Source: Okamejei kenojei (taxonomy: Eukaryota). From it: DNA of 64,000 bases. The DNA is taken from contig CM069131.1 of the NCBI GenBank assembly GCA_035221665.1, positions 87,172,001 through 87,236,000 of the forward strand. Direction: 5' to 3'. Both the position numbers and the translations under genes were made by a program. Below, piece by piece: positions 1,781-58,717 of the stretch; positions within the stretch are counted from its first letter, which is position 1; every line of letters starts with the position of its first letter. The notes under the pieces are model-generated. The model did no database searches, was not told where the DNA came from, and saw nothing but the letters and a program-made list of their open reading frames with translations.

Positions 1781-1789
1781 CTGACACAT
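1160..1789 (-). pseudogene. CR1 ORF2 reverse transcriptase C-terminal fragment
   Basis: LQDDLDRLGEWANAWQMQYNVDKC, RDLGV, LVRPHLEYCVQFWSP, RRLRGDLIETYKI; continues out of frame as FFTQRVVNLWNSLP. Confidence 0.92.
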
Positions 1790-2023
1790 AAAAGAGTGTC
1801 AGTTAACACTATTTCGAGATGGCTGAAACAAGTTTTGGTTGATGGGTTTACACCTCATTCCACTAGGGCAGCAGCTTCTTCAGCGGCCAAAGTGAAGGAC
1901 GTGCCCGTCGAGCATATTATGGCGGCCACCGGATGGGCAAATGAGCTGATGTTTCAGAATTTTTATCATGGGCTGATTGTTGATCCAGGGCTGTTTGCTA
2001 ATGCCATTTTAAGTTCTGTTTAA
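1785..2023 (+). pseudogene. DIRS tyrosine recombinase C-terminal fragment
   Basis: TISRWLKQVL...HSTRAAASS...IMAATGW...FQNFY: HxxR, W and catalytic-Tyr region of YR. Confidence 0.88.
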
Positions 2024-2782
2024 GTGCCCTGGTATTAAAGAGTACTGTCGTTTGTTTATGTTATTAAATAAACCCTATTACTACATTGAATGCAATGCTA
2101 CTACTAATGCATTATTTCTCATTCGAGTCAATTAATGCAGTGGAATGCCGAGTTTGTAATCTGCGGCATGAAATCACAAAGCTTTGAACTCTTCACGGAA
2201 TCACTCGAGTGACTCCGAAGTAAAATAGTAAGATTAAACGAGAACTTACCAGTTTGAAGTTTGATCTTGATTTTATGAGGAGTTACATTGGTAATTACCT
2301 GCCCGCCATGCCCAACCCTCTCTCATAAAGGATGATGTGGTAGTTCTCGAGTCACTGATCTTACTATGTACTTCTGTGTTGTTTTTTGTGATTTCATACC
2401 GCTGCTTTGAAGATTGACGTGCATGCGGCCTGGCGGGTCTTCTTCACGTAATCACCAACGTAACTCCTCATAAAATCAAGATCAAACTTCAAACTGGTAA
2501 GTTCTCATTTAATCTTACTATTCTAGGCACCGTTCATGCTACTGTCATGGAGCTATACACCATGCAAACATGTCCTTTGGCCCATATTGTCCTTATTGGC
2601 TTGTCCCATTTCCCCGCATTTGACCCATAGGCCTCAACATTTCATAACCATATATTAATTTCTATAGCTTCATCAAGGCAGCTCATTCCAGGTAGGGACG
2701 ATCCTCTGAGTGAACCTTAATACGTCTGATGTTTCTCCAGTGTAAGATGCATAATTAATTACATCAATATTCTTGCACAAAA

Positions 2783-3012
2783 GGCACAGAGGTAGAGTTG
2801 CTGCCTCACAGTGCTGTCTGTACGGAGTTTGTACGTTCTCCCTGTGACTGCATGGGTGTTCTCCAGTTTCCTCCCACGCACCAAAGATGTGCAGGATTGT
2901 AGGTTAATTGGCTTCAGTAAAAAAAAAATTGTAAATTATCTCTAGTGCTAGTGCACGGGGTGATCGTTGGTTGGCGCAGAATTGGTGGGTTAAAGAGCCT
3001 GTAAAGTTGTGA
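2783..3012 (+). mobile_element. tRNA-derived SINE (HE1/V-SINE-like)
   Basis: ggtagagttgctgcctcacag head; ctgtacggagtttgtacgttctccc core; recurs in window. Confidence 0.75.
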
Positions 3013-3227
3013 CAGGCCACCATGGATTGAGAGGGATTATATTTTGTAGGAAGCACAGTCATGCCAATGACAGAACAGCCTTTTCGCACATGGAATTCAG
3101 AGAGATCTCTCTGATGCACAAAGCACAGACACAGGTTTTCCAAGGGTGCCATCATAGAGACAAGTGAAAAGCAAGAGCTTCAGTGACATTGTTGTACTTT
3201 GACTATACTTTATGGAGATCAAAGCAA

Positions 3228-3700
3228 ATCAGGCAGCATCTGTAGAGGTAATGGACAGACCATCACTCAGGTCAGGACCCTTCTTCAGATTGTTGGAACG
3301 GGGGGTCGGGGGGAGCTGGATAAGAAAGGCAGGATTTGAGCAAAACATGGCAAGATGCATACAGTGAGATAGGGGTGATTGGTAGAGCAAGTGACAAAGG
3401 TTAGAAATGAAAAGGAGACAAAGGGTGTCTGATAAGGAAAGAAGAGGAGGAGCGAAATGGAAGTTACAGAGCAAAAGGCACAAAGGCAGAGGCGACGAAA
3501 GAAGAGTTTGACATGAGGGTGGGCTTGGGACTTGTTGAGGTGTCAGTGTGGGGGTACATAGTAAAGGCTAAGAACAGAACAGCATTGGAGAGGAGGAGGT
3601 TAAGGGAGATGGTGAAAACATGCAGGATCAAAGGAGGGCACAGGGCTCATGGAGTGTTTTATCCCTCGTTAAGCTATTGAGAAAGTCAATGGGTGGCCCA
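3228..3700 (-). mobile_element. Old Penelope pLTR fragment (inverted arm)
   Basis: tcaggcagcatctg...gacccttcttcag then purine-rich tract, as in younger Penelope copies here. Confidence 0.55.
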
Positions 3701-4539
3701 CATGTGTTGGCAGGAAACCATTGCTAAAGGTATTGGTAGAGTGGTGACTGGCCACAATGGATTGGGAGGGATTATGTTGTGGGAAATGAAGCTATCCTAC
3801 ACCATAATGGTTGGATGGAGGGATGAAAACAGCACAGCACAGAGATGGATGTGCAGGGTGGAGAAGGATTGAGGACTCGGGGAAATGACGTGGGTAGTGT
3901 TACAGGAAGGGAAACTGGACCCGGTGGTGTCGGTGTTACGTTGCCTGGAGGTAGGCAGCCGGGGGAATGCGAAGACCCAACAGACTGGACGTTCGCAGCC
4001 CACAGGTGGCCAGAGAAGCAATCGGAACGAGCAGCATCAATGGCCATGGCCTGGAAAGTCGCACAATTTGCTGCTCCCCGCTACACCAGAGAAGTCAACC
4101 AGCCACTGCACTTACACAGAGATGACTTCAGTGATATCCTGGCATCATGGCCTTCATGGAGAGAGTACCCTGCAGCCTGTGGAGTTCTCTCCTCTCCTCT
4201 CTGCTAGGAGATGGGACTGTTCTGGTCTGCTCGAGCTTTCCCTGCCCTCTTGCCCTTACTGTTCATCAATCTGCACCTGATGTCCCCCAGGACCTGCATC
4301 TGTGCCCAGCTCTTCCTCCATCCAGCACAGGCTGTTGGCCTCAGATTACAGTGCAGAGCACAGCACAAAGCCATGGAGACTCCCATGCTCCCAGAACTGC
4401 TGGTATCCCACATAGGCAGGCAGCAGCTCATTGGATCATTGGTCCCGAGGGGCTCTCAATAGAGAGAGTTCCCACTCCTTCAAATTACATGTGGTTGTGG
4501 GTATGCAATAGCCAGAAAGCACATGGGAGCAGCAGATGA

Positions 4540-5395
4540 TGCCTTCATCCTCAGAGAACTACCACCTCCCTGCCTGACATCTCCGCTAACCTTGTCCATT
4601 AAAACCAATGCTCCCTGTGTGACTTCTTCGACATCGGAGAGAACAAATGCAAACTAAGCAACCACTTTGACAAGCACTTGCACTCTGCCTGCCGTGGCCA
4701 TCTGGAGCGCCCAGTCACCAGCCATTTTAATTCCACTCCCCATTCCCACTTTGACCTGTTGTCCTCAGTCTCCTCCCCACCATAACATGGCCAAATGCAA
4801 ACTAGAGGAGCAACACCTCATATTCTGCCCAGCCAATCTATGACCTAATGGCATGACCACTGAATTCTCCAAGTATACATAATCTTGACTCCTCCCCCCA
4901 CCCCTCGATCCCTTTATTGCTCATAATGACTAATCCAGGTCCTCTCCCACACAACCCACTTTTCAACCCCACCCCAGCCCAGCCTCCGATCATTGAGTTA
5001 CCCCTCTCTCACCTACTTTAATTATGCATCACCCACACCCATCCTCCCACTGAATCACCTCCCCTATTCTTCACATCTCCCCACCCTGCTTTCCTTATTT
5101 GGTTCCATGCTTCGTGCATTGTATCATCTACGATCCTTTATTGTGTCCACCTCTCTCATCCTAGCCTTTGTTGCAATTTCTACCCCTCCCTCTACCATCT
5201 GACTGCATCCACTAATCAATTCCTCCTCCACGGGCTCAACCTACCTCGGGCCACACTCACCTTTAACGTCTTTGTGCTGGCAATGTCCCCTCTACTCCTT
5301 CAGTCCAGATACAGGGTCACAGCCTAAATTGCCAACTGTCTATTTCCCTTCGTAGATTCTGCTTGACCCACTGAATTCCTCCAGCAGATTGCTTA
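4540..5395 (+). mobile_element. Old Penelope element: degenerate GIY-YIG and pLTR
   Basis: Decayed YIGE.K.KL..HF..HL, HFNSTPH, KLEEQHLIF motifs at 4630-4875; pyrimidine tract and pLTR end. Confidence 0.7.
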
Positions 5396-6642
5396 ATGCT
5401 CACAAAAGAGCTATTCAGTGAGGCAATTTGACTGTCTATTTTTCTCCTACATGCTTACTTTTAAAGTTATTATAGTTTTGGTTTTATTATTGATTCAGGC
5501 TCTTTCATTGACGTATAAAAATCAAATTATCTTCTAAAATGCATGCACACCCATGGAGCAGTGAAAATTGAAATAACCTGAATCCAGGGAATCTAGAACG
5601 AAACAGAACATTCCTGAAATACACAGCAGTTCAGGGAACATCTCTGGAAAGAGGTACAGGGTTAATATTTCAAGTTTTATACCCTTCACCAGGGTTGAGT
5701 TGACGTGAAATATTAACTCTGTTCTTCTGTCCACAGATGTTGCCTGACCTGTCGAGTTTAACCAGTGAAATTGTCTTGCCCTAATTAGCACGTGCACATC
5801 CTAAATGATTTTGATATCTCTATTATAGCACTTGTTAAAAATAAATCTAATTCTTTGGAAACAAATATACTGCACAGAAGGGGGAGGGGCGGTGGGGTGA
5901 CACCGACAGGGACTACCCTTGTCTAGAATGTTAGTATCGGCAGGTACAAGGTGGGACGAATGCACCCCCATTTGGCTCATTCTGTCCCTGCCAATACTTC
6001 CTATTCCATTTGCTCCCCTCTTGGCTTCTCCCATACCTTTCTATCCCATCCTCTCATGTACCTGGCTGGATTCCTTTTAAAATGCTTTAACCTCTCTGTG
6101 TGCTAGCAATATCATTAACTGAAGTAAATTGCATTTAGTTTATTATAAGTGGACAGATACCTCACTTCATAAACATGGACCTTGAAAAAGTGATATTAGA
6201 ATTTATTTCACTACAGGGAAATTTGGTTTGTGCAAAATCACTGAATAATGTTCTCATAATTTCAATGCTTTCATTGAATTCATCTGTTCTGAAGAACCAA
6301 GATTATTTGAGATGGTCCCAGGAGACGCACGGAAAGAACACACAATCCTATTAGCATGAAAAGTGTAATAAAATTTATTAGCTGTAAAATGAAAATACAA
6401 CCTCATTATATATTTTGATTCACATCAGTAAACTACTCATTAAAAATAGTTTCTCTCATTTAAACCAAGGAAATCTCAATGTCCTGAAATAATGCAAGCT
6501 TTGGTGCCACACTGTGTTCAGTCTACACTGAAATAAAAGCAAAGCACAAAATGCTGGTGGAACTCAGCGTTCAGGGTCAGGACCCTTCTTCAGACTGATT
6601 AGTCCTGGTCCAAAGCATTGCCTGTCCATTCTCCCTACAGAT

Positions 6643-6861
6643 AGACACAAAAAGCTGGAGTAACTCAGGGGGTCAGACAGCATCTCTGGAGAAAAGGAAT
6701 AGGTGATGTTTTGGGTCGAGAACCTTCTGAGTCTGAAGAGGGACCTCGACCCGAAACGTCACCCATCCCTTTTCTCCAGAGATGCCGTCTGACCCCCTGA
6801 TTTACTCCAGCTTTTTGTATCTGTCTTTGGTTTAAACCAGCATCTGCTGTTCCTTCCTACA
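6643..6861. mobile_element. Palindromic mini-Penelope (head-to-head pLTRs) nested in an older Penelope palindrome (~6540-6935)
   Basis: ~90-bp inverted arms; imperfect 16-bp flanking repeat CATTCTCCCTACAGAT 6627-6642 / CATTCTCCTGGCAGAT 6862-6877. Confidence 0.75.
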
Positions 6862-7987
6862 CATTCTCCTGGCAGATCCCGCTGTTCCTCTCAGCAATTT
6901 GTGTTTTGATTAAGATACTGGCAGCTTCAGTGACTACACTGAAATTAACCTTGGAAGAGAAACTGATTAAAAAAGCCTATTGTACATAATCACTTTCAAT
7001 GTTATTCACCACCTGCACTGCAACTTTAAGAGCAACCTGCAGATGTCACATTACAAACATAGTTGAATGTTTTCAACAATAACAAGTGAAGTGAATAGCT
7101 GTACCACTCAGGTGGTATAATATTGTGGCATCTTTACACAAAATACCTGCATTCGTTACAATTTTATTATGCTTTAAATGCTGAAAAAATTGATATATTT
7201 CTCTTTGAGTGCATCTAACTGCTACCTGCAAATTCTTTCAAGTCTGGCTTAATAATGCTTGTAACAAGGTCTCCTCCACCATGTCTGGCACTGTGCCTTT
7301 TAAATTTCAAGCATCACCAATTATAGCAATAGAAAATGTTTGTTGTGAATAAGTTGAAGTGAATAGTGAAGACAGTATTGTGGCAAAATATATATCCGAT
7401 TGCACTTCAATTTGCTGACAGTAAGCACCTCGGTCATCAGCTTGAGAATGTTGTACTTAGAACCTATGGTGACAAGTGTAACTTATTTTGTCCTCCATTA
7501 ACACCATGGAAATGACCATATAATATGTCTCATTAGTAATGACGGTGTGCCCCCAGGAAAGGGGACATGCCCAACACGGAGCCACTGGAAACATGCTAGT
7601 TTTAGGTATGAATTAATTTTATTTGGTATAAAAATAATTTTATTGCATAATTCAAGGCTCTGGGACGATTATTTAAGACTGTATGCTCTGAAGGTCATGC
7701 AAATATGTGATTTAGTTGTAGCATTAAGCCCCTCAACCAACCTAACCCTAATGCTTCTTTGTATTGAATCACTTATGCAACACAAGGGAAAAATACCCAA
7801 TAAGTGACAATAATGTGTTTGATAGCAAGTAAACAGGAGAATCTTTTACTGTCGGAATTAAATTGTAAGTTCTAAAAAACTTTAACACTGAAGAACAAGA
7901 TGTTTATATTGGAAGACTGGTTCGTTACTGCCCCATGAGTCATACCAAGTCCTGGTCATGCTGATAAGAATTAAACAAAGTGCTTAA

Positions 7988-8682
7988 GTCCCACTTACGT
8001 GTCCTTGGCTCGCAAATTTTGCAACCTCGTGGTCGCTTGAGGCGTACGGGCACCGTATGGCCACACGGGGCCGATCCCACTTAGGAGCGCGGAGGGATAT
8101 GGAGTTGTGCGGGGCCCGTCCTGACATCGATCAGGGCACCAAAATTCTTGCAGTGAACAAAATCTTCACGTGCCAATGGACTGTCGCGGAACTGACGGCC
8201 AAAGTGGTACAGGCCCAAGACCCTGGCGCGATACAACGTCTCACCTTCAACAGGAGCAGAAGCAGGCAAACGATCGCCGAACTCGGCCTGGGGCTCACAG
8301 CCGTTACGGTGCAGATCCGCCCCCACTTCTACTCCCAGAGCGGGGCCAAGAAAATTGAAGATAGACACAAAATGCAGGAGTAACTCACCGGGACCGGCAG
8401 CATCCCTGGAGAGAAGCAATGGGTGATGTTTCGGGTCGAGACCCTTCTTTTCAGACTGATGAAGTCTCGACACGAAACGTCACCCATTCCTTCTCTCCAG
8501 AGATGCTGCCGGTCCCGCTGAGTTGCTCCTGCATTTTGTGTCCATCTTCAAATGACTTCACGCGCTCCAGACGGCTGTGCGTACGCATGTAATCGCACTC
8601 GACCTTCGCTTGACCGTCTCGGCTCAACGCGACCACGAGGTTACGTAATTTGCGTGCCAAGGACACGTAAGGGGGACAGGCC
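7988..8682. mobile_element. PIF/Harbinger-type MITE
   Basis: ~55-bp imperfect TIRs gtcccacttacgtgtccttggc.../...gccaaggacacgtaagggggacaggcc. Confidence 0.75.
8355..8551. mobile_element. Palindromic mini-Penelope inside the MITE
   Basis: ~95-bp near-perfect inverted arms meeting at tcagactga; hammerhead-like cores on both strands. Confidence 0.8.
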
Positions 8683-21858: not shown

Positions 21859-24133
21859 ACAGTAAGTCAGAATGATTCAATGCTCTTTATTAGAGACTGG
21901 GGTGGGAGATTGCAACCTTCACGTGGTCCTCCCTGTTTTGACTAATGCAAACAACCCGATGAGAACAAACAAACTGATGTACTGTTTTGTTAGGCTGTGC
22001 ACGCCATACGCAAGAAGAAGAAGATAAGAGACTGGCATCCAGAAGTTAGTATTGATGGAGACAATGGTTAATATTAACATGACAGACAGAAGGGCTTGTT
22101 TTTCTTCTGCATGATTGTATGCTTCTTCATGTCCTTCTTTCCAAAGCACAGACGTTGTTTACTTAAAAAAAACTTATACGAGTTTCCCTAAGTGTAATGG
22201 TGGTGTTCCCTCGTTGGTGTAAGGCTGACCAGCCTGAGGCCCATCCTCTCAAATATGTTTACTATAACCAGCCTGAAAAGCTCTGCAAATCAACTGGCGA
22301 ACTGTATCAAGAAAACTCAATTTGGTACTAAATTATTTATTGTCGTCACTTGATAAAATGGCTCTAAGATATATTTACCCTTTAGTATAAACTAATAATT
22401 TGCAGGGACATCAAGAGCATAACAGCTTATAATTACATTCATCTCACAATAAAAATTCCCTGCATACAATGCCTGCAAGCAAAACGTGTTAGATTATTGG
22501 CAGTGGCAAGGGTAGCCAGCATTAGATTAGTTTTCCACATTGTGTGATTATTATTCAACCAATGGACCAGTCTACACGTTTTTTAATTAATTTTTATGTT
22601 TGATAGTAGTTTGGGTAGAAACAGAATTAGCTTATATTTAATGTTCAGATATGCTATTGACATCCAGATGTTGTAGTTGTTACAGATGTTGGTGAATAAT
22701 ATAGTACACCATTTCTCACTGCTGCTTTCATACTCATTCACAACTATGGTTTGGGTTTGATATTTTTAGTGACCAATTGTTGTGGCAATAGAAGATAAAA
22801 TTAAAGGCAATAGTTATTCCTGGAGAAGGCTTTGTGAATGGATAAAATTAAGATTGGTCATATTTATCCCACAGAATGATATTTGTTCCAGATCTGAGAC
22901 ACTAGATTCTGTGTTCTCCACATTTGCTGATGGTACAGGAATTTGCAAGACATTTTTCCTCAGGGAATGGGAAGTTTTCATCTTTACCAGAGCAAACAGG
23001 CAACTCCAGACTAACATCAATGCCACTGACTCTTAGGTGCTTCTTGAAATGGTTCAGTAAGCCACCCATCTTAAGGAGCCATTAGTTAATGGGATGCATA
23101 TGCCCAGCTTCCCAGTGAAGTCCATATCCTGAGAATAACAATGTTTTTTTTTTATTTGTCCAGCACAGCAAGCATCCAACATCTTTTGTGTTGAAGATTT
23201 GAAATTGAAAAATCATGATGGTGTCATTGTTGAAATCTGCACCACAGTCACTATTTAAAGAGGTCTCTTTCTGCTTGGAATGGTCCCCAGATAGAATAAT
23301 TGATCAATCACATTCTCAACTGCAATTTCTATCTGGGGGAAAGAAAAAACCCCATCGATGTTCACTTTCCACCCTGTTAAAGGCCTGTGGCTCACGTAAT
23401 TGGAGCAGCTGGATCCAGAGACATACTTATATAGATAAACCTAGTTTTGGATGCAAGTCTTCCCTTCCACCTATTCTTACTTTATTTTCTTGCTCTAAAC
23501 AATATACAAAGGAAAATAAAATGGAATTGACAGTTCCAGAATCAGCAGTGATAAACTGATAGTTTGAAAACAGGCCCTTCAGCCCATCGGGTCCACGTCG
23601 ACCATCCCTCACCTATTCACACTAGTTCAATTTTATCCCACTTAGGTAAAAGCTGACTAAAAGCTCCAAAATACCAACATTTAACTGTCACAAACTTAAA
23701 AATAAATGCCATCCCTAATATTTTAGCAGGCCTTAGCAGCACAAGGGAGCACTTTCACAGTGATGACTGCAACAGTTCAGAAAGATGACTACCACCTTTA
23801 CAAGAGCAATTATCTAGGGCATTACTTCTGAGTCTACGAGCAATGGCCATATCCCACGCACAATATTTTTGAAATTCACCTTTTTGGAATTCCTGTAGTT
23901 GCACCATTGTAACTTTGTCAAAAGTGAAGCCGATAACCAATTTTGAGGAGTGTATGGGGGTCTTGTTGGGGTTTTGAGACATTCTCAGCTCAGATGGATC
24001 TCAGCACAGAAACTTCCTTTCTCTGGTTAAATGTTTCCATAACAAAGTACATCTGCAGCAAAATAGTTTCAAGAAATTAAAGCTTAGACTTCCTAGTGAA
24101 TCTTAGGTGGTTCAAATTGCAGTTTGGGATATA

Positions 24134-25770
24134 CAGTGGCTTGCAAAAGTATTCATACCCCTTGAACTTTTCCACATATTGTCATGTTACAACCACAAAT
24201 ATAAATGTATTTTATTGGGATTGTATGTGAGAGACCAACACAAAAGGGTGCATAATTGTGAAGTGGAAGGAAAATGATACATGGTTTCCAAATTTTATTA
24301 CAAATAAAAAACTGAAAAGTGTGGCGTGCAAAAGTATTCAGCCCCCCTGAGTCAATACTTTGTAGTACCACCTTTCGCTGCAATTACAGCTGCAAGTCTT
24401 TTGGGGTATGTCTCTACCAGCTTTGCACATCTAGAGACTGAAATTTTTGCCCATTCTTCTTTGCAAAATAGCTCAAGTTCAGTCAGATTGGATGGAGAGC
24501 GTCTGTGAACAGCAATTTTCAAGTCTTGCCAGAGATTCTCAATTGGATTTAGGTCTGGACTTTGACTGGGCCATTCTAACACATGAATATGCTTTGATCT
24601 AAACCATTCCATTGTAGCTCTGGCTGTATGTTTAGGGTCGTTGTCCTGCTGGAAGGTGAACCTCCGCCCCAGTCTCAAGTCTTTTGCAGACTCTAACAGG
24701 TTTTCTTCCAAGATTGCCCTGTATTTGGCGCCATCCATCTTCCCATCAACTCTGACCAGCTTCCCTGTCCCTGCTGAAGAAAAGCATCCACACAGCATGA
24801 TGTTGCCACCACATGTAACACAGTGGGGATGGTGTGTTCATGGTGATGTGCAGTGTTAGTTTTCCGCCACACATAGCGTTTTGCATTTAGGCCAAAAACG
24901 TCAATTTTGTTCTCATCAGACCAGAGCACCTTCCTCCACATGTTTGCTGTGTCCCCCATATGGCTTGTGGCCAACTGCAAATGGGACTTCTTATGGCTTT
25001 GTTTCAACAATGGCTTTCTTCTTGCCACTCTTCCACAAAGGCACGAGTTGTGGAGTGCACGACTAATAGTTGTCCTGTGGACAGATTCTCCCACCTGAGC
25101 TGCGGATCTCTGCAGCTCCTCCAGAGTGACCATGGGCCTCTTTGCTGCTTCTCTGATCAATGTTCTCCTTGCCCGGCCTGTCAGTTTAGGTGGACGGCCA
25201 TGTCTTGGTAGGTTTGCAGTTGTGCCATACTCTTTCCATTTTCGGATGATGGATTGAACAGTGCTCCGTGAGATGTTCAAAGCTTGGGATATTTTTTTAT
25301 AACTTAACCCTGCTTTAAACTTCTCCACAACTTTATCCCTGACCTGTCTGGTGTGTTCCTTGGGCTTCATGATGCCCAAGGAACATTGTTTGTTCACTAA
25401 TGTTCTCTAACAAACCTCTGAGGCCTTCACAGAACAGCTGTATTTATACTGAGATTAGATTACACACTATTTATTTAATTAGGACTCTATTTATTAATTA
25501 GGTGACTTCTAAAGGCAATTGGTTGCACTGGATTTTATTTAGGGGTATCAGAGTAAAGGGGGCTGAATACTTTTGCACGCCACACTTTTCAGTTTTTTAT
25601 TAGTAAAAAAATTTGAAAACCATGTATCATTTTCCTTCCACTTCACAATTATGTACCACTTTGTGTTGGTCTATCACATAAAATCCCAATAAAATACATT
25701 TACGTTTGTGGTTGTAACGTGACAAAATGTGGAAAAGTTCAAGGGGTATGAATACTTTTGCAAGCCACTG
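24134..25770 (-). mobile_element. Tc1 DNA transposon, full length, IR/DR-type TIRs
   Basis: TA flanks 24132-24133 and 25771-25772; ~213-bp TIRs starting CAGTGGCTTGCAAAAGTATTCA with inner repeat TGCAAAAGTATTCAGCCCC. Confidence 0.97.
24352..25370 (-). pseudogene. Tc1 transposase (DD34E), one frameshift near 24810
   Basis: MKPKEH..., HTH and [23 protein letters not shown] (34 residues D to E); 1019 nt, one base short of 339 aa plus stop. Confidence 0.95.
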
Positions 25771-26555
25771 TAGCTAATACTGTTGGGAACGGGTCAAAAC
25801 TGTAGTAACATCCTTATTATTTCATCTTCTGTATTAGCTGTCTGATTTTAGGATTTATACTAGTCTCATCACATATCAGTGACATTGAAATAATAAGAAT
25901 CTTTTTTTCCCCATGGTGGGGGTATCTAAAAGTTCAGTTCTGTTCAGTATCAAGGTACTGTGGACAGCTTTTGTTGCGTGCTGTAAAGTTAGCAGAAAGC
26001 AAACAACAGAATATATGTTTAAGATGAGAGGAAGAAAGATTAAGGGACATCAGAGGGTAAAGTTTTTCACAACAGAATGATTGATATCTGGAACATGCTG
26101 CCAGAGGAGATAGGGAAGGCAGGAACAATCACAACATTTAAAAAGCATTTTACCAGGCAATCAAATTACCAAAGCATAAAAGGCTACTAATCTAATACCG
26201 GCAATTAGGATACATACAGATAAGGGTAGCACAGGGGCAGAGCTTGTAGAGCTGTTACCTCCCAGTGCCAGAGAGCCGTTTTCAGCTTTGACCTCAGATG
26301 CTAAATAGGAGAATTTGCACGTTCTTCCTGTGACTGCATGGTTTCCTCTGGATGTTTCGGTTGCTGCCCCCAACAGAAAGGAACCGCAGATGCAGCCATC
26401 ACCGCAAAATGTCTAAGAAGGAACTGTAGATGTTGGAAAATCGAAGGTAGACAAAAATGCTGGAGAAACTCAGCGGGTGTGAAGCCCTGTCCCACTGTGC
26501 GAGTAGGATGAACGTAGGATGAACGTAGCGGGTACGTCGGAGCTCGGGACATTTC

Positions 26556-31597: not shown

Positions 31598-34500
31598 TTT
31601 TTCATAATGATTCTCAAATATTCATTGCAACTAACAGTTAAGTATCCTTCTATTATTTTATACAATGGTGGCATCTGCAAAATTTTGCAAGAATGTTCAG
31701 AACCATTGTGACTTTTATGTTTTCTTCTTTGAGAGATTTCACAAATTCAGGCGCACATTCATTTCAATTAGTAAAACTTATTCTAAGATCTCCAAAGCTG
31801 GGGGAAAAAAAACAATCCACAATATAAAAAAGCTGGAAATGCTGGAGATCTTAAATAAAAACAGAAAATGCTGAAAACACTCAGCAGTTCAAGTAGCATC
31901 CATGGAAAGAGAAACTTGTTAATGTTCCAGATCAAAGATGCTTCATCAAAACAGGAAAAGTAGAAAACAACTATCTATGTAATGAATTACTGCTCTCAGA
32001 AATGAAGATATGACCAGACCTGTTGTCAGCTAATGCACCTCCACTCACATGACAACTCATTGCAACAAAGATGAATCCATCGCAGATCCTTTTTTTCATA
32101 CCACGAGGATTCCAATCCATCATTTCAATGTCAATTCATTAATCCCTTTCAATAGGCTTCATGGACTCTGTTATTGATCTATGGCAGAAAATCAGAATGG
32201 TATTCTGCTCGGAGCTCCTAGATTTGTTTGTATGGCGATACTGTGATAATAAGATTACCCATCTTGCATTTTCAATATGGGGAGCATAGCCACATAGGGA
32301 ATCAATATTTTGAAGTCTTCATTGACTTGTGGTGATTAATTGTCTGTTACTGGAGTAATGGATCTGCTAAGTAAAAATTGATTTTTAAAAATTCCGCAGA
32401 TTGTTCCAAGTGCTGCCTTCTTGATACACTTAATTTAGTTTATTCCTTCTGCGCGTGTTAGAAGGGTAAGTATATTTGCATTCATCATGTGGTTTAATGC
32501 TGTGCCTTCATCATTACCTTGATGTATCACATGCCAACCTTGGTTTTGTAATGAACAAGAGGAGCCCCACTACCTAATCTGTTCTTGAATTCATCATTTG
32601 CACGTTATTACTCCTTACAATGCAAGGACAAGTTCTTTACTGAAGCAACATATTCACCGTGCTTCTGGATCAATGCCACAAACTTAGAGTTTTCAGCCAC
32701 TTCTAACAGCTTTGAATTGAACTAATCTTTTGCTTTCTGTACATCAAGTTATTGGTCAATGCGTTATGAGACCATTTGTCAGGGGATCATATGCCTCTGG
32801 CCTGATCTCCATCAGAGATGCTGCATCTTCACAGTCTCCTATTACCTAGTTTTGGGCTCTCAACAGACACCTTTTCCCTCAATCTCCATAATATTGAGCA
32901 GGATCACAGACATCTACCCATTTTTTTACATAGAGAACTGCCAGCTAGCAGAAGTGTGTGCACTTTAGTGTATTTTGGCCTTTTGCACCCATGCACTTCA
33001 GAGTATAGGCATTGACTGAAATGGAGGTCAGATATAAGCACAACTATCCTCTCGTTCCTTTCACCCTGACCCATCAGGAACAAACAATGGAAAAAAAGAA
33101 TAATCACAGCGAAATCTGAAGCTCATTTTATATCTTGCACTTGAATTCATTATCACTTCAACCTTGCTTTAAATAAAGCACATAATAATGCAAAAAAAAA
33201 AATCCAAATCCATTGTTCTGCATATCACTGCATTACACAGAACTGCAACATTATTTTAGATGCAAAGATTGAGAATTCAAGCAATCTCAAGAAAACCTGA
33301 TCATTTTAACAATACAAATGATTCTACAAGCACCATGTTCAATCACTGATAATTGAAATGGTTCACACATGATTCAAGTTTGAATGCACAAAATAACCCA
33401 CAATTTTTATAAGCATAGTGATTGCACATTTCCTCACACAGATGAAGCACTTCAACAGGTTTGAAGAACCCTCATTGACATATGCATGCTTGGTAACTGC
33501 ACCCATTTGCACTTGGTTAGCTATGCATAAAATCACAGATTAAATGCTGCATCTGCTTTGAAGGGTCTGTGCCCATTTGCTTTTGAAGCACCATCAATCA
33601 CAAATCAGACTGGGCATTTCCTATCACAATTCACCCCAGCTTGGGTATCAGTTCTCAATTCTATTTTGTACATGTGACAACATCACAAACTGGCAATTTA
33701 AACTAATTAAATTACTTAATAACAGAACCCCAATCAAAGGTTGCACCTTAAGATCTCCATAATTAACACCAACAGAATACACCATGCCAAAAATAGTGAA
33801 TTAAAATGACAACCCACCACCCACACTGGGACATTATTTTTAAAAAGGTATCCCTGTGTATTTTCTTAATTCACTATTTCTAATGCACTGGCACTCCACT
33901 GCAACACTGAGATTCCCGCTACTGGGTCTGATGTGGTCACTGATGAGAAAGTGGGATAACACAGAACAGAACGGGTAATAGATGGTTGGAATGGACTCGG
34001 TGGGCCGAAGGGCTTGTTTCCATGCTGTGTCTCCAAACTCAATTTTACTTTGGAGTCACGTGAAGAAGTCCCGCCAGTCCGCATGCGCATCATATCGTCG
34101 TTCGCATGGCGAAGCACCGGACTGGCAGGGCATCGCTCCTGCCGGCGGTAAGTTTAAACCTAGAAGGTACGTTTATTTTACTTACCAGGGTTTGCTGTTC
34201 AAGCAGGAATCTCTCTTCACAAAGGTTTCCTGCTAGTCTTATTGCAAAGTCTGGTGAATGAGCCGGCTATGGACTGTGGGGAGAACCTGGTTCCGACCGT
34301 GTAAGCGGATAGCCGGTAAATGTTGGGCTCGCGATTCCAGCCACTGACAAGGGGGTCAATGTTACCGCCAGAGTCGCTGACAGTGGGGTCAGTGGCTCAC
34401 AGACATATCATCGTTCGTAGTGGTCCCCAGGCATGGGGTGAAGTCACCGAAAAATGGATCCACCTTATTGTACTCCGGGGGGGGGGGGGGGGGGGGGGGG

Positions 34501-35629
34501 GCAGCAAGGGTTCCCCTCTGGTAATAAGTATGTATTTTGCATGGATGCTGTTATCATTTTAACCCTTCACAGGTGAAGCTCCAAAATTAATGTCCCCGCT
34601 TGGAGAAGGACACCATGCCGGGTCAGTACACCTCAGACACTAGATCTGTAACAGCGTGGGCCTACGGGGCGGGCCTATGGGACAGGCTGCGCCAGCAGCA
34701 CCTGGGACAGGGCTGCTTAATGTCTCCCTGTTGGAGGGGGAGACCATGACGTGTCAGTGTACTGCTGATTCTGAATTTGTCACAGCGCCGGCCCACGGGA
34801 GAGCCCGCCGCAGCAGCACCTGTTGACAGGGCTGCTTAATGTGTGACAGCGCCAGCTTGTAGGAGAGCCCGCGCCAGCAGCGCCAGGGACAGGGCTGCTT
34901 CATGTCTCCCCCTTGGAGGAGGAGAGCATGCCAGGTCAGTGTAATTCTGAAGCCGAGGCTGAGGGTAAAGCTGTGAAGCATACCCCAAGGGAAGAAAGGC
35001 ATGTGTCAGAGGTACCATTCCTGACAACAAAGTTTGCCATTCCAACAGAATGTTCCATCCTAGTAGAGGTCCATTGGGGGCCGTATCAGCGCAGGTATCC
35101 TCAGGGAATTGCAGCACCTGTTTAGGGCTGCCTTCGAATCGCCCTCTCTGAGGAGGGGAGTGCGAAAGGTCAGATGTAACTGACTCCAGATTCTAAAGAT
35201 GTCGGTGGAACATACTGGAGCACATGCGTGCTGGCAGTGAACAGCGCTAACAGGGGGATATGAGAGCCAGCCGCCGAATCTGCTATTCAGGTAAGGTATA
35301 TTCAACAGGAAAAACCTGGCTGACTGACCAATCAAGGCCAACGGTGGGCAAAGTTTCATCGTTTCAGAACGCACCCCAGGCGCTCATCGGCAGTAAGCGG
35401 TTCACTGAAGCTGGTGGCAGCATGACCGCTGGGCAGACGTTCCATGTACCCTACCAGTCCTACTCAACAAGGTGGGTCTGGCATTTCCGAAACGTGGGTA
35501 AGTGGACCAATCACAAGTTGGTAATAGTTACACTTGTTTGTACAACAAACAAATGATAAAAGCAGGGTACACAAAAGGCTGGAGAAACTCAGCGGGTGCA
35601 GCAGCATCTAAGGAGCGAAGGAGATAGGC

Positions 35630-35657
35630 GACGTTTCGGGTCGAGACCCTTCTTCAG
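35630..35657 (-). ncRNA. Minimal type I hammerhead ribozyme motif (best-preserved copy)
   Basis: CTGAAGA-A-GGGTC-TC-GACCC-GAAAC-GTC: both core boxes, 5-bp stem II, GUC triplet. Confidence 0.65.
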
Positions 35658-35894
35658 ATTGGTCAGGGATCAGGGAAACGAGAGATATAGACGGTGATGT
35701 GGAGAGATAAAGAACAATGAATGAAAGATATGCAAAAAAGTATCAATGATAAAGGGAACAAGCCATTGTAAGCTGTTTGTGGTGCAAAAAATGAGAAGCT
35801 GGTGCGACTAGGGTGGGGGAGGGAGATAGAGAGAGTGGGAATGCCAGGGCCCGAGGGCTGAGGGAGAGGTGGGAAGGGGAGGAGACAGCAAGGG

Positions 35895-36315
35895 TTAACA
35901 GAATTGAGAAAATTCAATGTTCAAGCCCAAAGGATGCAGACTCCCCAAGCGGAATATGAGGTGCTGTTCCTCCAACTTGCGGTGTTGCTCATTCTGGCCG
36001 TGGAGGAGGCCCAGGACCGAGAGGTCGGATACGGAATGGGAGGGGGAGTTGAAGTGCTGAGCCACCGGGAGGTCGGGTTGGCTAATGCGGACCGAGCGGA
36101 GGTGTTCGGCGAAACGATCGCCAAGCCTCCGCTAGGTCTCACCGATATAGATCATCTGGCATCTGGAGCAGCGGATGCAGTAGATGAGGTTGGAGGAGGT
36201 GCAGGTGAACCTCTGTCGGACCTGGAAGGACTGCTTGGGTCCCTGAAAGGAGTGGAGGGGGGAGGTGAAGGGACAAGTGTAGCATTTCTTGTGGTTGCAA
36301 GGGAAAGTGCCCGGG
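35895..36315 (-). pseudogene. Penelope GIY-YIG endonuclease with one in-frame stop
   Basis: PGTFPCNHKKCYTC...FTCTSSNLIYCIRCSRCQMIYIGET*RRLGDRFAEH...RKLEEQHLIFRLGSLHPLGLN. Confidence 0.9.
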
Positions 36316-39300
36316 GAAGGGGTAGAGCGGGAGGGAAGGGAAGAATTGACAAGGGAGTTGCAGAGGGAGCGGTCTTTGCGGAAGGCAGACAGGGGAGGAG
36401 ATGGGAAGATGTGGCAAGTGGAGGGGAAGATGTGGCGAGGAAAAGCATCTGCTTAGAGGCATTTAACCATGTAAAACTGCACAATACTAGTATTCCAAGC
36501 AAGTTTGGGATTATGGCCTGTTCATTATGAAATATTGGGAATTTCAGTTAACTCGCATATGAACTTTCCAAATAGGAAACTTCTTTAGTGACTAACAATG
36601 GATTCATAAGGGTCTCAAAGATCCATTCTATGCAGTTCCCATTACAGAGGTTATCAAAAGGCAATGATAACTGTACTAATAACAGTAAAACATTGTTAAA
36701 TGGGATAAACTATTTACCCAGGTTATTAAACTAATTAATAAAATCGGTGTTTGGACTCAGAATTTAAAAACACTTGTTATGTCTTGTCTGGATGATATTC
36801 TAACGCTGTATTTTTGTTAAAATCATCTGTTTCAGCCTCAACTACATTTTAGAAATTGGCATCCATCCAGTTCACTTTAAGTTGTTACCAAATAGACTTG
36901 TTGGTCATTGGGATTTACCTTTAACTATTAATTAGCCTTTGACTCCACCCTGTGGCAAGAGATTGGAGTTAATAGCAACCTGTTATAAAACTGACTTTTA
37001 TTCATCAAGAGTAATTGGCAATATTGTAGCTGTGTTTCAGCTGTGCAAGTCGGAATGGACATAGTGCAAAGTAGCAACCTCTTAAAGGACATGTAGATCA
37101 TTGTTAACAACCTTATGCTATTGCCAGCTGAAGCTACCTAAGTCACAATGATGAACAAACAGTATTCAGCATTGCTCCAGTAGTTTGGTCAGTCGAATTT
37201 CAGTTATTTACAAACTGATGCTAAGAGTTCTAAGATGGGAAATTGTGAATATCATCTCTAGTTTGGAGGTGGAGGAGAATTGCATGAGTTGCCAATTCTT
37301 CAGTTGTTGGTATCAACTAAATATATACACCAGATGCACCCCATGGGTAAAGGGCTATTGAGCGAATATATATAACCTACATGCTCAACCTCAAGTGGCT
37401 GCACTCCGATGGTGGCATATGTTAATCACATGGCAAACAAGTAAAAGTATCCTGTAATAATTTACCTAATCTTCTTGCCACCGGTGTACCATCAAGTTCA
37501 GATCGATGATAACACAGAATAGGTATTGGATCTCAAAATATTATGGAAGTATGGTTCAATGGAACACAGAATATTGACATGTTGGTTTCATGCTTATTCA
37601 CTGATTGCAAAAATATGTGGCATAACTGTGGTGAGAGATACATTCTCACTACGAGAAGGAGGAATGTTCTTTTCTGTCTTCCTCCATTTTGTCTCATTCG
37701 TCGGGCCTTGAAATAAAATCAGCAAGATCTTGCTTTAGATTTCGTACTGTCTGACCGGCTATGCAGCCATATTTCCTGCTTTCATCAGGGCATAATTATA
37801 CAACTGTATATGGTTATTCTAAGAAACAAAAACTTTGCTGGTTCAAACTGTGGTTCGGGAAACCGGCCTCTGCATAATAAAACAATTATTGACTTACACA
37901 TTCTGAATGAACTGCCTTACTGTTCGGGTTGTCACATCAATCCATGCATGTGCTCGCTACAGAGTGCAGGGATAGCACCAAAAAAGCAGTACATTTCCTA
38001 TTGAGGGGATTGGAAGCGGTTTGTTTAATGTTATTGTTACATTTAATACGGTACAGATTACTGACGTCTTCCAGTTCATTCTTAAATGGTCTTTGACAAT
38101 AATTCAGTTATAGGGCCACTAACTGTGCCCAACATGTCTTCCCATCATATTAGCTGCAGCAAATGGGAACCACTGAACCCCGGATATCGAGTTGTAAAGG
38201 AGATCTTTGACACAAGTTCTCCCACTTCAAGTATATGCAGTTTTGGATATTGACAGTGTGTTAACAATACTTCACCGGGGGTTCCGGCTACATCCTTAGT
38301 CAGTACTCTAATATCAGCACAATGAGGGCAGACATTGCAAACGCTGCGGCTAGGTAGGATGGAAATGGCTGCAGATGCCATTACGTTTTACATTTCTGAT
38401 CTACACAAGTAGAGCAGACCAGGGGTGGCAGGATTTCAAACATATTTCGGCATACCCCACGGACTTACATCTATGTGTGAGGGCAGGCATGCTATATTAT
38501 ATTAAGGCCACCAGAGTCCTAAGAGGTGTGGAATCAGCATTGTTTAAGGTGGCTGAAGCAGATTCTGTTTTTTGCAGGTATTAACACCGACAATTTTACA
38601 TCTCATTCCACCAGGGCGGCATCAACATCAGCGGCCAGGGCAATGGACATTCCCATCGATCATATCCTCGCGACTGCAGGATGGTCAACTGAATTGATTT
38701 TTTTTTAACGTTTCCAAAGGCCGATTACTAACCCGGGCTATTGCCCATTCTGTTTTGCGTCCACTTTAGCCTCTGAGATAGATGGGTTGCTATTGATTTC
38801 TTTATTAACGTAAACCATTAATACATTTGAATCAATGTCATGGTTAATGCATTGTTGATTATTCACTCATCCTGAGTCAATCGATGCAGTGAGACGCGGG
38901 GGTTTCAATCTGCGGCATGAAATCACAGAGCTTTGAACTCTTCACAGAATCACTCATGTGACTCCGGAGTAAAATAGTAAGATTAAATGAGAACTTACCA
39001 GTTTGAAGTTTGATCTTTATTTTATGAGGAGTTACGTTGGTGATTACATGCCCTCCACTCTGCACCCTCTCTCACAAAGTTCATCTGGTAGTTTTCAAGT
39101 TGCTGATCTTACTATGTTACTTCAATTACTGTTACCTGTGATTTCATACCGCCGTTTTGAAGATTGACGTGCATGCGGACAGGCGGGGCTTCTTCAAGTA
39201 ATCACTAACGTAATTCCTCATAAAATAAAGATCAAACTTCAAACTGGTAAGTTTTCATTTAATCTTACTATTAAACACTGATTTTGGAAACAAGAGACAA

Positions 39301-52940: not shown

Positions 52941-53182
52941 AAAGATGATACTGGTAAAGATGTTGAAAGAACAGGAGAGTTAAATTCACTGATGAATATG
53001 AAATAAAAGTTCCAGAGGAATCAGTGTTGCTTGGCCGTGAGAGACCTGAAAATTTAGTGTTGGGCATTGAAGATTTTAATATTTAGAAGAATCAAAATGA
53101 GAAGTTTTGAAAATATGATATTAGTAGTCTAACTTTGACAGAAGCCTGATGAAATCTTGTTGTGCCTCTTATTGAACTATAG

Positions 53183-56100
53183 ATTTTACTTCGGAGTCAA
53201 GTGAGTGATTCCATGAAGAACCCCGCCAGTGCGCATGCTCGTCATTTCGCATGGCTCAGCGACTGACTGGCAGGTGCAACGGTCCTGCCAGCGGTAAGTT
53301 TAAACATGCAGGTAAGTTTATATTTCTTACGAGGTTTTGTTTTCTCTTGCAGGAACCTCTTCTTATAGAGGATTCCTGCTGGATATTGTCGCGAAGTCCG
53401 GCGAGCCGCAGGGAAACCGACTTGTGCTTTGGGGAGTCGCAGGAGCCGGCGGCCGTCGGGTTCGCGACTCCAGTCGCTGACAATGCGGTCAGTGGCTCCC
53501 AGACCGCTGTGGTTCCCGTGGAGAGGTATCACTGTCAGAGTCGCTGACAAATCGGTCAGCGACTTCCAGACCGCCGTGGTTCCCGTGGAGGGTTAAATCC
53601 AGAAGGAAGGCGGTATCACCACCAAAGTCGCTGACAGTACGGTCAGCGGCTCCCACACCGCTGTGGCCCTCAGGACATGGGGTATAATCACCCATAAAGC
53701 GGTCAGCCTATGGATTCGGGATGAGTCGGGCCGGGAGGGTTCCATTCCGGTGATAATTAACAGTTTGGGCTACACTGGATGGAGCTCCTAATGGAAATGA
53801 TGTTCCATCATGACACACTCCAAAAGGAGGAGTAGTGTCAGCGCCGGCCTACGGGAGAGCCCGGGCCAGCAGCACCTATTCAGGGCTGCTTAATTGGACG
53901 GTTGTCCAGGATGGAGCTCCTAATAGAGAGGATGTTCCACTAACACACACTCCAACAGTAGTGTCAGCGCCGGCCTATGGGAGTGCCCCCGCCAGCAGCG
54001 CCTAGTTAGGGATGCTTAATGTCTCCCTCTTGGAGGAGTTATTCTACCACCGAGTATGTTCCATTCTGGTATAGGTCTGTTGGGAGGCCATATCAGCGCA
54101 GGTACCCTCAGGGGCCTGAGCCAGCACCTGTTCAGGGCTGCCTACAATCTTCCCCTTTATGGAGTGGAGTGCGAATGGTCAGTTGGTAACTGATTTCAAA
54201 TTCTAAAGTATGTCCGTGGAACATACGGGTGCACATGTGTATGGGTTCAAGGCAATCCTCGCAGACGAAGGTGTTGCTGCCAAAAGTGTTGGTTACCAGC
54301 CGTTGGCAGAATACCTGGAAGGGGTCAGAGTTCCCCTCACGCTACAAGTGCCGGCAATGAACCGAGCTCTAGCCGCCGAATCTTCTATTCAGGTAAGTCC
54401 TGGATGAGGAAGCAAAAGCTGTCGGACCAATCAAGGTACCAACAAAGCTTCATCGGTTCGGCGACAACACACTTCACGCCTCCATTGGGAGTGAGCGGTT
54501 CACTGAACCTATGGCAGCGTGAAAACTGGACAGATGTTCCACGCACCCTACCGGTCCTACTCTATAACCGGGCATGGGGTAAGTGGACCACTTACAAGTT
54601 GTTAATTTACACTTGTTTGTACAACACACTTATGGTTAAGGCATTGTCACCTAACCATGTAAAACTGTACAATACAAATATTCCAAGCTGGTTTGGAATT
54701 AGGGCCAGTATTATCTTTTAAGGCAGGCTCAGTATTATGGCCAGGATCGCTTCGAGACAGGATCGAAATATGGCCAGAATTGTTTTCACGGCAGGCTTAG
54801 AATTATGGCCAGAGTTGCCTTTAGAGGCAGGTTCGGAATTATGAGATAGGCTCATTTTTATGGCCAGGATTGTCTTCCAAGACAGGCTTGGAAATTGGGC
54901 CAGAGTTGTCGATCCAGGCACAGAATGATGGCAGACGTGGCTGTTCATTGTTAAGATGGAGAAGGTTGTGTAAGTGTAAATTTCTGAATAGGAAACTTCG
55001 TCACTGATTAACAACTGATTTTCATAAGGATCTCAAAGATACATTCTAAGCAGTTCCCATTTACAGGGATCACCGGAGACATTTGAAATTATCAGAAGAA
55101 TGATAACAGTAATGCTAATTTGCTAATGATGAGGCAATGAGAACAGTAAAACATTGCAAGATGGGCTAAATTATTTATCCAGGTATTTACCAGGTATTTC
55201 AAAAATCGGTGCTTTGGCTACTCAGTCTAAACTTGTTATGTCTAGTCTGAATGATATTCTAACACTCAATTTTGCAAAAATCAATTGTTCAGCTTCAAAC
55301 TTGAGAAATTCAAAGGTGGGAAGGGCTTTGTAAGATCCCTCATCCATCCAGTTAAAATTAAGTAGTTACCAATATACTTGTTGGTTATTGGAATTTACCT
55401 TCAACTATTAATTAGCCTGTGACTCCGCCCTGGGACAAGAGATTGGAGTTAATGGGAACTTGTAACAACCTTGTTGTTATAAGCAGCTGTCTATTCATCA
55501 AGAGTAATTGGCAATATAGTAGCTGTGCTCAGCTGTGAAGTAGCAACCTCTCAAGTGTTGACTAGGTCATTGTTAAGAGACCTATGCTATTACCAGCTGA
55601 AGCTGATAAAGTCATAATGATGGACAAACACTATTCAGCATTGCTCCACTAGTTTGGTCAGTAAAAACTCAGGTTTATTACAAACTGATGCTAAGTGCTC
55701 TAAGGTGGAAAATTGCAAATGTTCACCTCTAGTTCGGAGGTGGAGCAGATTTATATCAGTTGCCAATTCTTCAGTTATTGCTATCAACTATAAACCCTAG
55801 GTGCATTATATGGGTAAAGGGTTATGGAGCAAATATGCATGTTCAACTTCAGGTTGATACACAATGGTGGTGGCATATGTTAGTCACATGGGTGCAATCA
55901 AGTAAAAGCATCCTGTACTAATTTACATAATCTCATTTGCCACTGATGTATCATCAAGTACAAATCAATGACAACACAGAATGAGTGTTGGATCACAAAG
56001 TATTTATGAAATTATGGTTCGGTGGAACATCGAATGTTGATGTGATGTTTCATGCTTATTCATGGCTGCAAAACTATGTGGCATAACAGTGGCGAGAGAT

Positions 56101-57753
56101 ACATTATCACTACAACAAGGAGGAATGTTCGTTATGTCTTCCTCCATTTTGCCCATCAGTCGGATCTTGAAATAAAGTCAGCAAGATCCCGCTTAGGCTT
56201 TCGTACTGGCTGACTGGACTATGCAGCCCTGATTCCTGTTTGTCAGGAATATTAATACAACCTTATATGGTTATTCTACATGCAACGCTTTGCTGGTCAG
56301 CCTGTGGCTCGGAAAACCAGCCTCTGCATGATAAAATCAAATTATTATTTTGCAGATTCTGAGTAGACTGCTCCTACGGCTCGGGTTGTCACACCGACCC
56401 ATGTATGTACTCACTGCAGAGGGCAGGGATACCATCCCAAAAAAGCAGTACAGTTTTCGCCAGGAGATGGGAAGAGCTTTGTTTAATGCTATGTTACATT
56501 TAATATGGTAGATACTGATGACTTTAAGTTCATTTTCCAATAGGTCTTTGACAATAATTGAGTTATAGGGCCATTAACTGTGCTTAATGTGCCTTCCCAT
56601 CATATTTACTGCAGCGAATTGGATCCACTCTGTCGGGCTCACCCCGGATATCGAGTTTGTAAAGGATCATTAACACATATTCCCCCAGGACAAGAACAAG
56701 GCTGTATGGGATACTGACATCGTGCTGGCACTGCTTAGCCGGGGGCTCCAGCTACATCCTAGCTTTGGCCGTCTCATAAGCTGGTTATCCTCATGGCACT
56801 GGTCCCAGCGCAACGGCTCCAGTCACTACATAATTGTGACTGGACAGGATGGTTACATCTGCAAATAATATTATATTTATGTTTTAGTTAAGCAGAGCAG
56901 AAGGGGAGTCAGGTCCCAAATTAGTTTCATGACATATTCAGGGACCTTCAGTTATGTGAGGTCACACATTTACAACAATATGTCAAGGTCACCAAGAGCC
57001 TAGAGGTTTCCTGCTGGATATTGAACTAGCAATGTTGTTAGTTACAAAAAGGCTTTATAAAAATGTGTCAGTTCAGACCATCCCCAGGCAGTGAAACGGG
57101 GTTTGGTTTATATGGGAGTAGATATGAATTAAATCACTCCACCAGGTCTGCTACATCATCAGTAGCAAGGGTTAGTTACGTTCCGCTGGATCGCATCCTA
57201 GCAGCTGCAGGACGGTCGAATGAACGAACCTTCCAAACACTTATAATAACCCATTGTCAGGCCAGGGGTTTTTTACCAACTCTATTTTACGTTCAGTTCT
57301 ATAGTCCCTCTCGGATGAGAGTGGTTACTATTATGATTATTTATTCATTATGAATGTTTCCCTCATACTGTCAATAAAGCGGCTGTGGTTGTGTAGACTC
57401 ATTTCTCACAGCATGAAATCACAGAGCTTTGAAATCTTCATGGAATCACTCATGTGACTCCGAAGTAAAATAGTAAGATTAAATGAGAACTTACCAGTTT
57501 GAAGTTTGATCTATATTTTATGAGGAGTTACGTTGGTGATTATGTGAAGAACTCCGCCAGTGCGCATGCTCGTCAATCTTCAAAGCAACAGTGTGAAATC
57601 ACAGAAAACAGTAATTGAAGTGACATAGTAAGGTTATAAACCTAGAACTACCATATGACCTCTGTGATATGAGGGTTGGGAGCAGAGGGCACATAATCAC
57701 CAATGTAACTGATCAAACTTCAAACTGGTAAGTTCTCATTTAATCTTACGATT
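53183..57753 (+). mobile_element. DIRS-type retrotransposon, decayed (copy 3)
   Basis: ATT termini; ICR 57435-57546; colinear with copy 2; YR HSTRSATSS...ILAAAGRS (57063-57353). Confidence 0.92.
54722..54935 (+). repeat. Degenerate ~33-bp tandem array inside DIRS copy 3
   Basis: Recurring ggcaggct...attatggccagg unit. Confidence 0.7.
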
Positions 57754-58717
57754 TCCCTCTATTACATTGGAGGAGCCCTTGACTGCATCCAATCTATTTC
57801 CTGCAGTTCTGCCCTCAGCCTCTTCCAAGATAAACTAATCTCATCTGCAAGCACATGATCCATATCCCTCTGTTCCCTGCATATCTGTGTGACTAGCAAA
57901 GAGCCTCTTAAATGCCACTAATGTATCTGCCTCCATCACCACCCCTAGCACAGTCCTGCACATCTCCTTTAAACATTTCCTCCATCCATCTTAAGCCTAT
58001 GCCATTTAGTCTTTGACATTTCCACTCTGGGAAAACAATTCTGATTTTCTACCTTATCCATGCTTTGCAAGATTTTTAGATACTGCCATATACCATTCCT
58101 ACTTTAGAATTAATGGGGAAATCCAAAATCATTGCTGAAGTAGTCGAAAATGGGCAGACCGATAACCATGGTCCTTTTGCTTTCTGCTGGGGCAGAGATA
58201 ATTACTGCCCATCAACCTTAGCAATCTGTGTTGGAAAGAACTGCAGATGCCGGTTTACAACGCGTGTACACACCCACAATGCTGGAGTAACTTAGCGGGA
58301 CAGACTGAATTCTGAAGAAGGGCCTCAACCCAAAACATCACCCATTCCTTCTATCCAGAGATGCTGCCTGTCCCACTAAGTCACTCCAGCATTTTGTGTC
58401 AACCCTAACAACTTTATCTATCCCCTTTGCTAGGTAGACTGCTGTTATCGGAAAGTTTTCCTCGTGATTCCCATTCAATTCAGTTTACAACTTTAAGATT
58501 ATTATTATAAATTATGAGAAAATGGGGTGTTTTGCGGATTGAGGAGCATACTTAAGAAGGAAATCAGGAGGGCAAAGAGGGGGCAGGGGATAATATTTAG
58601 GAGATTTTGTATGTAAATTTACCAAGGAGAAAGACATGAAGACTGGGAAACTTGGGAGAGTCCATTTTATTGTTGAGGAGGTGCTAAATGTCCTAAGGCA
58701 CATGAAGGTGGATAAAT

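Follow-up and report, generated by a model that had tools for sequence, protein, structure and literature searches.

The DIRS1-like copies at the locus

The window, by which the whole 64-kb stretch of DNA analysed here is meant, carries three copies of a single family of DIRS1-like retrotransposon, all of them old and broken. The remnant of a tyrosine recombinase (YR) precedes the ICR in 3/3 copies (tblastn), with the C-terminus of the enzyme lying at 1772-2020 in copy 1. The YR fragment of copy 1 matches 997 proteins at E ≤ 0.001, and Phage_integrase was present in all 10 of those scanned, two of which also carry RVT_1; the homologue P0030 combines RVT_1 with Phage_integrase. In the window itself, Phage_integrase was matched by one of 57 fragments, at a sub-threshold E value of 0.0014. 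The search of the window for RT, RNase H and methyltransferase gave no significant match and left weak collinear traces at 55029 and 36614, in a heavily decayed region, and there are no long open reading frames in the three DIRS copies. The extent of decay can be gauged from the bodies of copies 2 and 3, which are about 75% identical in a gapped alignment with 7 of 52 gaps measuring at least 10 bp, from the 3-15% divergence between repeats expected to be identical at insertion, and from a 12-bp deletion at the left end of copy 2. The three copies and the parts of copy 3 are as follows.

553-2522, + strand: copy 1, standard orientation, with arms at 2224-2301 and 2445-2522 and the loop at 2302-2444 (143 bp, reading CCC..CTT)
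34042-39272, + strand: copy 2, standard orientation, with arms at 38973-39050 and 39195-39272 and the loop at 39051-39194 (144 bp, reading CCC..CTT)
53183-57753, + strand: copy 3, DIRS1-like, decayed, starting and ending with ATT
53183-53219, + strand: left terminus of copy 3, complementary to the left ICR half
53215-53244, + strand: left ITR core of copy 3
56772-57269, + strand: broken YR gene remnant of copy 3 (HSTR...AG motif region; tblastn E 1.4e-9 with P0090)
57408-57424, + strand: 17-nt repeat upstream of the copy 3 ICR, its partner in the loop at 57588 now direct
57435-57471, + strand: left half of the copy 3 ICR, 37 bp
57469-57546, + strand: right half of the copy 3 ICR, which is also the left arm, 78 bp, with the AAT circle junction at 57469-57471
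57546-57575, + strand: right ITR core of copy 3, repeating the left end in direct orientation
57547-57689, - strand: loop of copy 3, 143 bp, reading AAG..GGG, inverted; the C-rich tract that normally follows the ICR here abuts the terminal arm on the - strand
57690-57753, + strand: terminal arm of copy 3, with a 14-bp deletion between 57710 and 57711, ending in CTTACG followed by ATT

A 24-nt arm motif occurs six times in the window against 0 expected and a left-end motif six times against 0.06 expected, in both cases exclusively inside the three copies; nhmmer found no fourth loop or arm in the window. All three copies (3/3) begin and end with ATT, this terminal trinucleotide matches the ICR junction, and no ordinary TSD is seen, which is the configuration that characterizes DIRS1-like elements. 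Joined and read as their reverse complement, the ends give the ICR (37 + 78 bp with an AAT overlap), which in copy 3 is complementary to the left start at 35/37 positions and to the right end at 62/64 aligned positions.

Inversion of the loop at the right end of copy 3

The right end of each of the three copies consists of two inverted arms of 78 bp enclosing a loop of 143-144 bp, and in copy 3 the 143-bp loop is inverted, the inversion being bounded exactly by the rICR arm and the terminal arm. When reversed, the loop of copy 3 agrees with that of copy 1 at 111/140 aligned bases (z 16.6) and with that of copy 2 at 115/142 (z 19.0), a reversed identity of 79-81% that none of 300 shuffles equalled in either comparison, whereas the forward comparisons give 67/131 (z 0.8) and 67/129 (z 0.5), respectively. 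The loops of copies 1 and 2 agree with each other in the forward direction at 116/142. Both the inversion of the loop and its polarity are thus direct observations. A sequence-only reading of the window had described this arrangement, and re-measurement reproduced its coordinates and loop sizes for the three copies as well as its claims that the copy 3 loop is the reverse complement of the other two and that both arms of copy 3 are kept, one of them with a short deletion.

The arms differ at 4 of 78 bp in copy 1 and at 4 of 78 bp in copy 2, and those of copy 3 show 2 differences in 64 aligned bases in addition to the 14-bp deletion. Because the loop that carries the right ITR core is inverted, this core stands in direct and not inverted orientation relative to the left end: 53213-53244 and 57544-57575 differ at 2/32 positions, and the similarity extends over 57514-57575 if its divergent part is counted. 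The corresponding ITRs of copies 1 and 2 are inverted, with 28/32 and 28/33 matches. The direct repeat announced in the sequence-only reading is accordingly present at 29/30 over the interval that it had given. The same reading had drawn attention to variants shared by the left and right ends of copy 3; these exist, but they do not set copy 3 apart, as matched variants peculiar to each copy occur in the ITR cores and in the arms of all three. Such matching is expected from the recopying of the ends at each transposition under the model set out in PMC7192593, and all that the variants establish for copy 3 is that the loop belongs to it.

Several smaller features surround the inverted segment. 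The loop and the region before the ICR share a 17-nt repeat (2163/2402, 38912/39152 and 57408/57588), which is inverted in copies 1 and 2; both partners in copy 3 read ACAG where the other copies have GCGG, matching changes that are possibly compensatory and partly CpG decay. The terminal half-site CTTACTAT recurs within the loop, at 2359, 39107 and 57633, as a possible second recombinase-binding site or alternative pairing site. At the outer boundary of copy 3 a G precedes the terminal ATT, the same base as in the left flank, and the ICR has T at this position. Both junctions of this copy (53179-53187 and 57750-57754) read GATTT, two bases beyond the ATT core, which is absent in copies 1 and 2 and may reflect a wider region of strand exchange. 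In the left ICR of copy 1, at 2204-2213, two adjacent changes create a perfect 10-bp palindrome, the pattern of quasi-palindrome template switching.

Polarity of the right end in other DIRS elements

A YR alignment scan of the genome contigs returned 111 pattern matches, of which two (L001 and L002) were confirmed, both belonging to other families; the exact 24-nt arm motif had 0 matches in the same contigs. The standard polarity is seen in L001, whose ITR is inverted and whose C-rich tract directly follows the ICR arm. In L002 the C-rich tract likewise follows the ICR arm, the polarity being read from this marker only as the left end is absent from the contig; its arm resembles that of the window family and shares several motifs with it. 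L001 occupies 4967-8661 of a 705-kb contig in a Nitrospirales bin and L002 about 900-5006 of a 5.4-kb contig in a Sedimenticola bin, and these eukaryote-type DIRS elements in bacterial genome bins are most likely host DNA in the bins.

Standard polarity is therefore found in four of the five elements examined (copies 1 and 2, L001 and L002), three of the five belonging to the window family. Since copies 1 and 2 and two unrelated elements share the opposite polarity, the arrangement in copy 3 is the derived state. In Table 3 of PMC3266345, termini are annotated for 27 of 28 elements, and these show the standard layout; conserved ITRs and an ICR have been reported for 8/10 copies of DIRS in X. 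tropicalis (10.1101/2021.08.05.455354). Published annotations rest on selected or consensus elements, in which a minor isomer could be hidden. Within the window family, the flipped frequency is 1/3, with a 95% interval of 0.8-91%, and the selection of the window for its oddness bears on this figure. The arm pair formed by the rICR and the right terminus has been described for all DIRS1-like elements (PMC3266345); as the arms of copy 3 are an ordinary pair of this kind, any DIRS offers a substrate for such an inversion.

Origin of the inversion

Symbolic bookkeeping of the segments shows that three routes reach the observed order, a I body a' b' I C' b, namely an exchange between the two arms of an integrated copy by crossover or template switch, recombination of the circle junction with the ICR on the double-stranded circle before normal integration, and fold-back priming on the ICR by the 3' end of the plus strand. 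Hairpin priming and arm-arm recombination, both put forward in the sequence-only reading, thus each yield the product seen, and the signatures in the window do not separate the three routes. Minus-strand run-through synthesis was also considered as a route and gives the wrong order. Other candidate signatures were discarded as uninformative: the TG in both copy 3 arms and the A common to the ICR arm of copy 1 and the terminal arm of copy 3 are CpG changes that leave the breakpoints unplaced, and the 14-bp deletion, considered as a template-switch scar, lacks microhomology and is of a size common among the gaps of this family.

The probabilities expressed below are judgements and not computed values. 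As to the time and the agent of the event, we infer, at about even probability, that the flip of copy 3 is a sporadic host inversion between the arms, which took place after insertion in a dead copy whose parent had the standard layout; among the readings considered it is the most likely, and it is of a known kind. In such a scheme, copy 3 would have been inserted from a parent in the standard layout, and its right-end inverted repeat (rICR and right terminus, 78 bp around 143 bp) would then have become the substrate on which replication template switching, break repair or homologous recombination between the arms could act, the spacer being turned round while both arms and both ATT ends stay. 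The event is exact and bounded by the arms, and the right-end hairpin is very stable (z -12.1). Inversion of the spacer of an inverted repeat is a known, recurrent host process (PMC8604942), and microinversions flanked by inverted repeats of 3-75 nt have been described (PMC8755829). The ITR variants matched between left and right in copy 3 are consistent with a parent in the standard layout, and the G before the right ATT weakly suggests that the junction made at insertion survives at the outer terminal arm. A permuted copy, which a flip on the circle predicts, does not occur among the three copies of the window, which also counts in favour of a host inversion. Against it stand the published spacers, which are far shorter, at 2-5 bp in yeast genes (PMC8604942) and 17-33 nt in apes (PMC8755829), and the chance of finding one flipped copy in three, which is 3% at a true frequency of 1% and 14% at a true frequency of 5%.

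A possible but less probable explanation is that the flip arose as an occasional by-product of the element's own cycle, just before integration, a setting in which one flipped copy in three is easier to obtain because the event is tied to transposition. Either the YR would flip the loop between the circle junction and the ICR, which are two inverted full recombinase sites on a double-stranded circle, or the 3' end of the plus strand would fold onto the ICR arm and prime synthesis, the wrong strand then supplying the loop as in parvovirus flip/flop. Both variants give exactly the observed order, and the normal ATT ends of copy 3 are as expected if integration came after the flip. The divergence of the repeat pairs carries no sign that the flip postdates insertion, as the arms of copy 3 show no late homogenization (2/64 against 8/156 differences, p = 0.73; dating tests p = 0.73 and 0.30). 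A 3' hairpin primer has been suggested for DIRS-1 (PMC7192593). The variant on the circle nevertheless predicts permuted integrants, equal in number to normal ones if the YR cannot tell the sites apart, and such integrants are absent from the window and are not mentioned in the literature covered; the fold-back variant would require that the hairpin primer persist and be copied. The cDNA of DIRS-1 proved to be single-stranded and mostly linear (PMC7192593), and the sequence bears no positive signature of either variant. A broader proposition, which we regard as doubtful, is that DIRS replication intermediates isomerize in general, the double-stranded circle flipping like the 2-micron plasmid or the plus strand self-priming on the ICR, so that every family would leave a minority of flipped and perhaps permuted integrants hidden by consensus annotation.

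Regular flip/flop, with both isomers common (10-50%) or the flipped form constituting a replicating lineage, is improbable. The wide interval around the frequency in the window family accommodates it, but neither of the two unrelated elements is flipped (0/2), published annotations show the standard layout, and a flipped minus strand would be without an ITR template; the ACAG changes in the 17-nt repeat of copy 3 could pair solely in the standard layout, a weak argument given that they are partly CpG decay. The YR might instead have inverted the whole arm-loop-arm block after integration, the ICR junction and the right end crossing over at their 3-bp core. This would yield the observed order, and the AAT core agrees with the ATT core, yet a full swap of the arms would move the G before ATT into the ICR, which has T, a weak objection that holds only if the G came from the target site and not from later mutation; we consider this very unlikely. 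Lowest in probability is an assembly error that mis-oriented the loop between similar arms. Although an inverted repeat does flank the segment, the copy 3 arms match exactly over 39 bp at most, which is less than any usual read, the arms differ by the 14-bp indel, the window contains no N and thus no gaps, and the loop carries the ITR variants of copy 3 itself. A sporadic host inversion after insertion remains the reading that is preferred here.

Comparison with known systems

The short-ITR DIRS1-like elements AcaDIRS1, LgDIRS1 and LgDIRS3 (PMC3266345, Table 3) are alike to the window family in their ATT...ATT ends, their AAT junction and a YR with the HSTR motif. The sizes in these mollusc short-ITR elements are close to those of the window family: the ICR halves measure 37 + 78 bp in the window and 39 + 86 in LgDIRS1, and the conserved ITR about 30 bp in the window family as against 31 in the short-ITR elements (PMC3266345). 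Copy 3 departs from the DIRS1-like elements of that paper in that its loop and right ITR core are reversed, a form of which the portion of PMC3266345 available here makes no mention. The host inversions and microinversions of PMC8604942 and PMC8755829 resemble copy 3 in the clean inversion of a spacer with the arms kept; they differ from it in that the 143-bp spacer of copy 3 is much longer and its arms are functional parts of a mobile element.

In the Cappello model, the DIRS circle contains two inverted copies of the recombination site, although the circle junction has not yet been amplified experimentally (PMC7192593). The predicted DIRS circle has the layout of the 2-micron plasmid, in which a tyrosine-recombinase site lies at the centre of each of two inverted repeats. 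In that plasmid, Flp generates the A and B isomers; DIRS integrants, by contrast, are overwhelmingly of one form, and we know of no demonstration of flipping by a DIRS YR. In the flip/flop of parvoviruses and AAV, the loop of a terminal hairpin occurs in two orientations on an unchanged stem, in an obligate process that yields both at about equal frequency. Copy 3 shares the reversed loop and the unchanged stem, and differs in being a single genomic copy with no sign of terminal resolution. PAT-like elements, Ngaro and VIPER are YR retrotransposons with split direct repeats (SDRs) in the order A1...B1 A2 B2, whereas copy 3 has one short direct repeat; their internal copy of the circle junction is direct, and the ICR of copy 3 is inverted, which places copy 3 outside the SDR type.

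Consequences of the inversion

The sequence-only reading had suggested that the flip could offer a route from ITRs to split direct repeats. This proposal fails, as the ICR stays inverted and the flipped copy is still a...a' b'...b, whereas SDR architecture needs a...b a...b. According to the symbolic bookkeeping, the SDR order is reached only by inversion of the ICR itself, which the 17-nt inverted repeat flanking the ICR in copies 1 and 2 could in principle mediate; no inversion of the ICR is seen in the three copies. The Cappello model has the left ITR rebuilt by fold-back, with the inverted right ITR as its source (PMC7192593). In the same bookkeeping, the minus strand of a flipped copy presents the ITR in the wrong sense, so that the flipped isomer should not propagate, and the flipped form is predicted to be a dead end under a model that has itself been tested only in part.

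An effect on transcription is plausible by analogy with Dictyostelium DIRS-1, where the two ITRs act as strong promoters and transcription in opposing directions supplies RNAi (PMC4482531); in copy 3, a promoter switch of this kind would concern a core of about 30 bp in a decayed copy. With the flip, the antisense ITR promoter, which is putative here, would face outward, towards a GGTAAG donor-like site at 57727, and that of flipped copies in general would likewise face outward if isomerization were real. The 30-bp ITR core contains the motif GCGCATGC, which we take to be NRF1-like.

As a structural variant of a DIRS1-like element, the flip in copy 3 is apparently undescribed. The literature searched on DIRS termini, which lay outside the founding papers (Cappello; Goodwin and Poulter) and Repbase and does not establish absence from print, yielded no account of a right end turned round in this way. 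Taken as a single host inversion in a dead element, the flip would carry little weight beyond the warning that DIRS copies can lose the ITR signature used for annotation. If flips proved common among copies, they would reveal how DIRS elements handle their DNA intermediate. Should isomerization be true, the frequency of flips and the breakpoints within the arms would provide a genomic read-out of the late steps of the DIRS cycle, including priming, second-strand synthesis and the choice of site. Counts of flipped and permuted integrants in young copies would bear on whether the intermediate is a double-stranded circle with two equal sites, a self-priming plus strand, or neither.

Other repeats in the window

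The window had 0 Rfam matches. The repeats around the DIRS copies resemble those known from cartilaginous fish. The body of copy 1 is mostly replaced (676-1770) by two oppositely oriented copies of another repeat, presumably CR1-like tails, whose arms at 676-797 and 867-988 (95%) are separated by a 69-nt spacer. Copy 2 contains an insertion of about 900 bp at about 35565-36460, negative in Pfam for 2/2 fragments, which we assume to be GIY-YIG/Penelope-like and whose repeat family also makes several short palindromes (6639-6826, 8348-8558). A further element at 24132-25772 has 222-nt terminal inverted repeats (93%) and pieces of a transposase-like open reading frame on the - strand, and is presumably Tc1/mariner-like.
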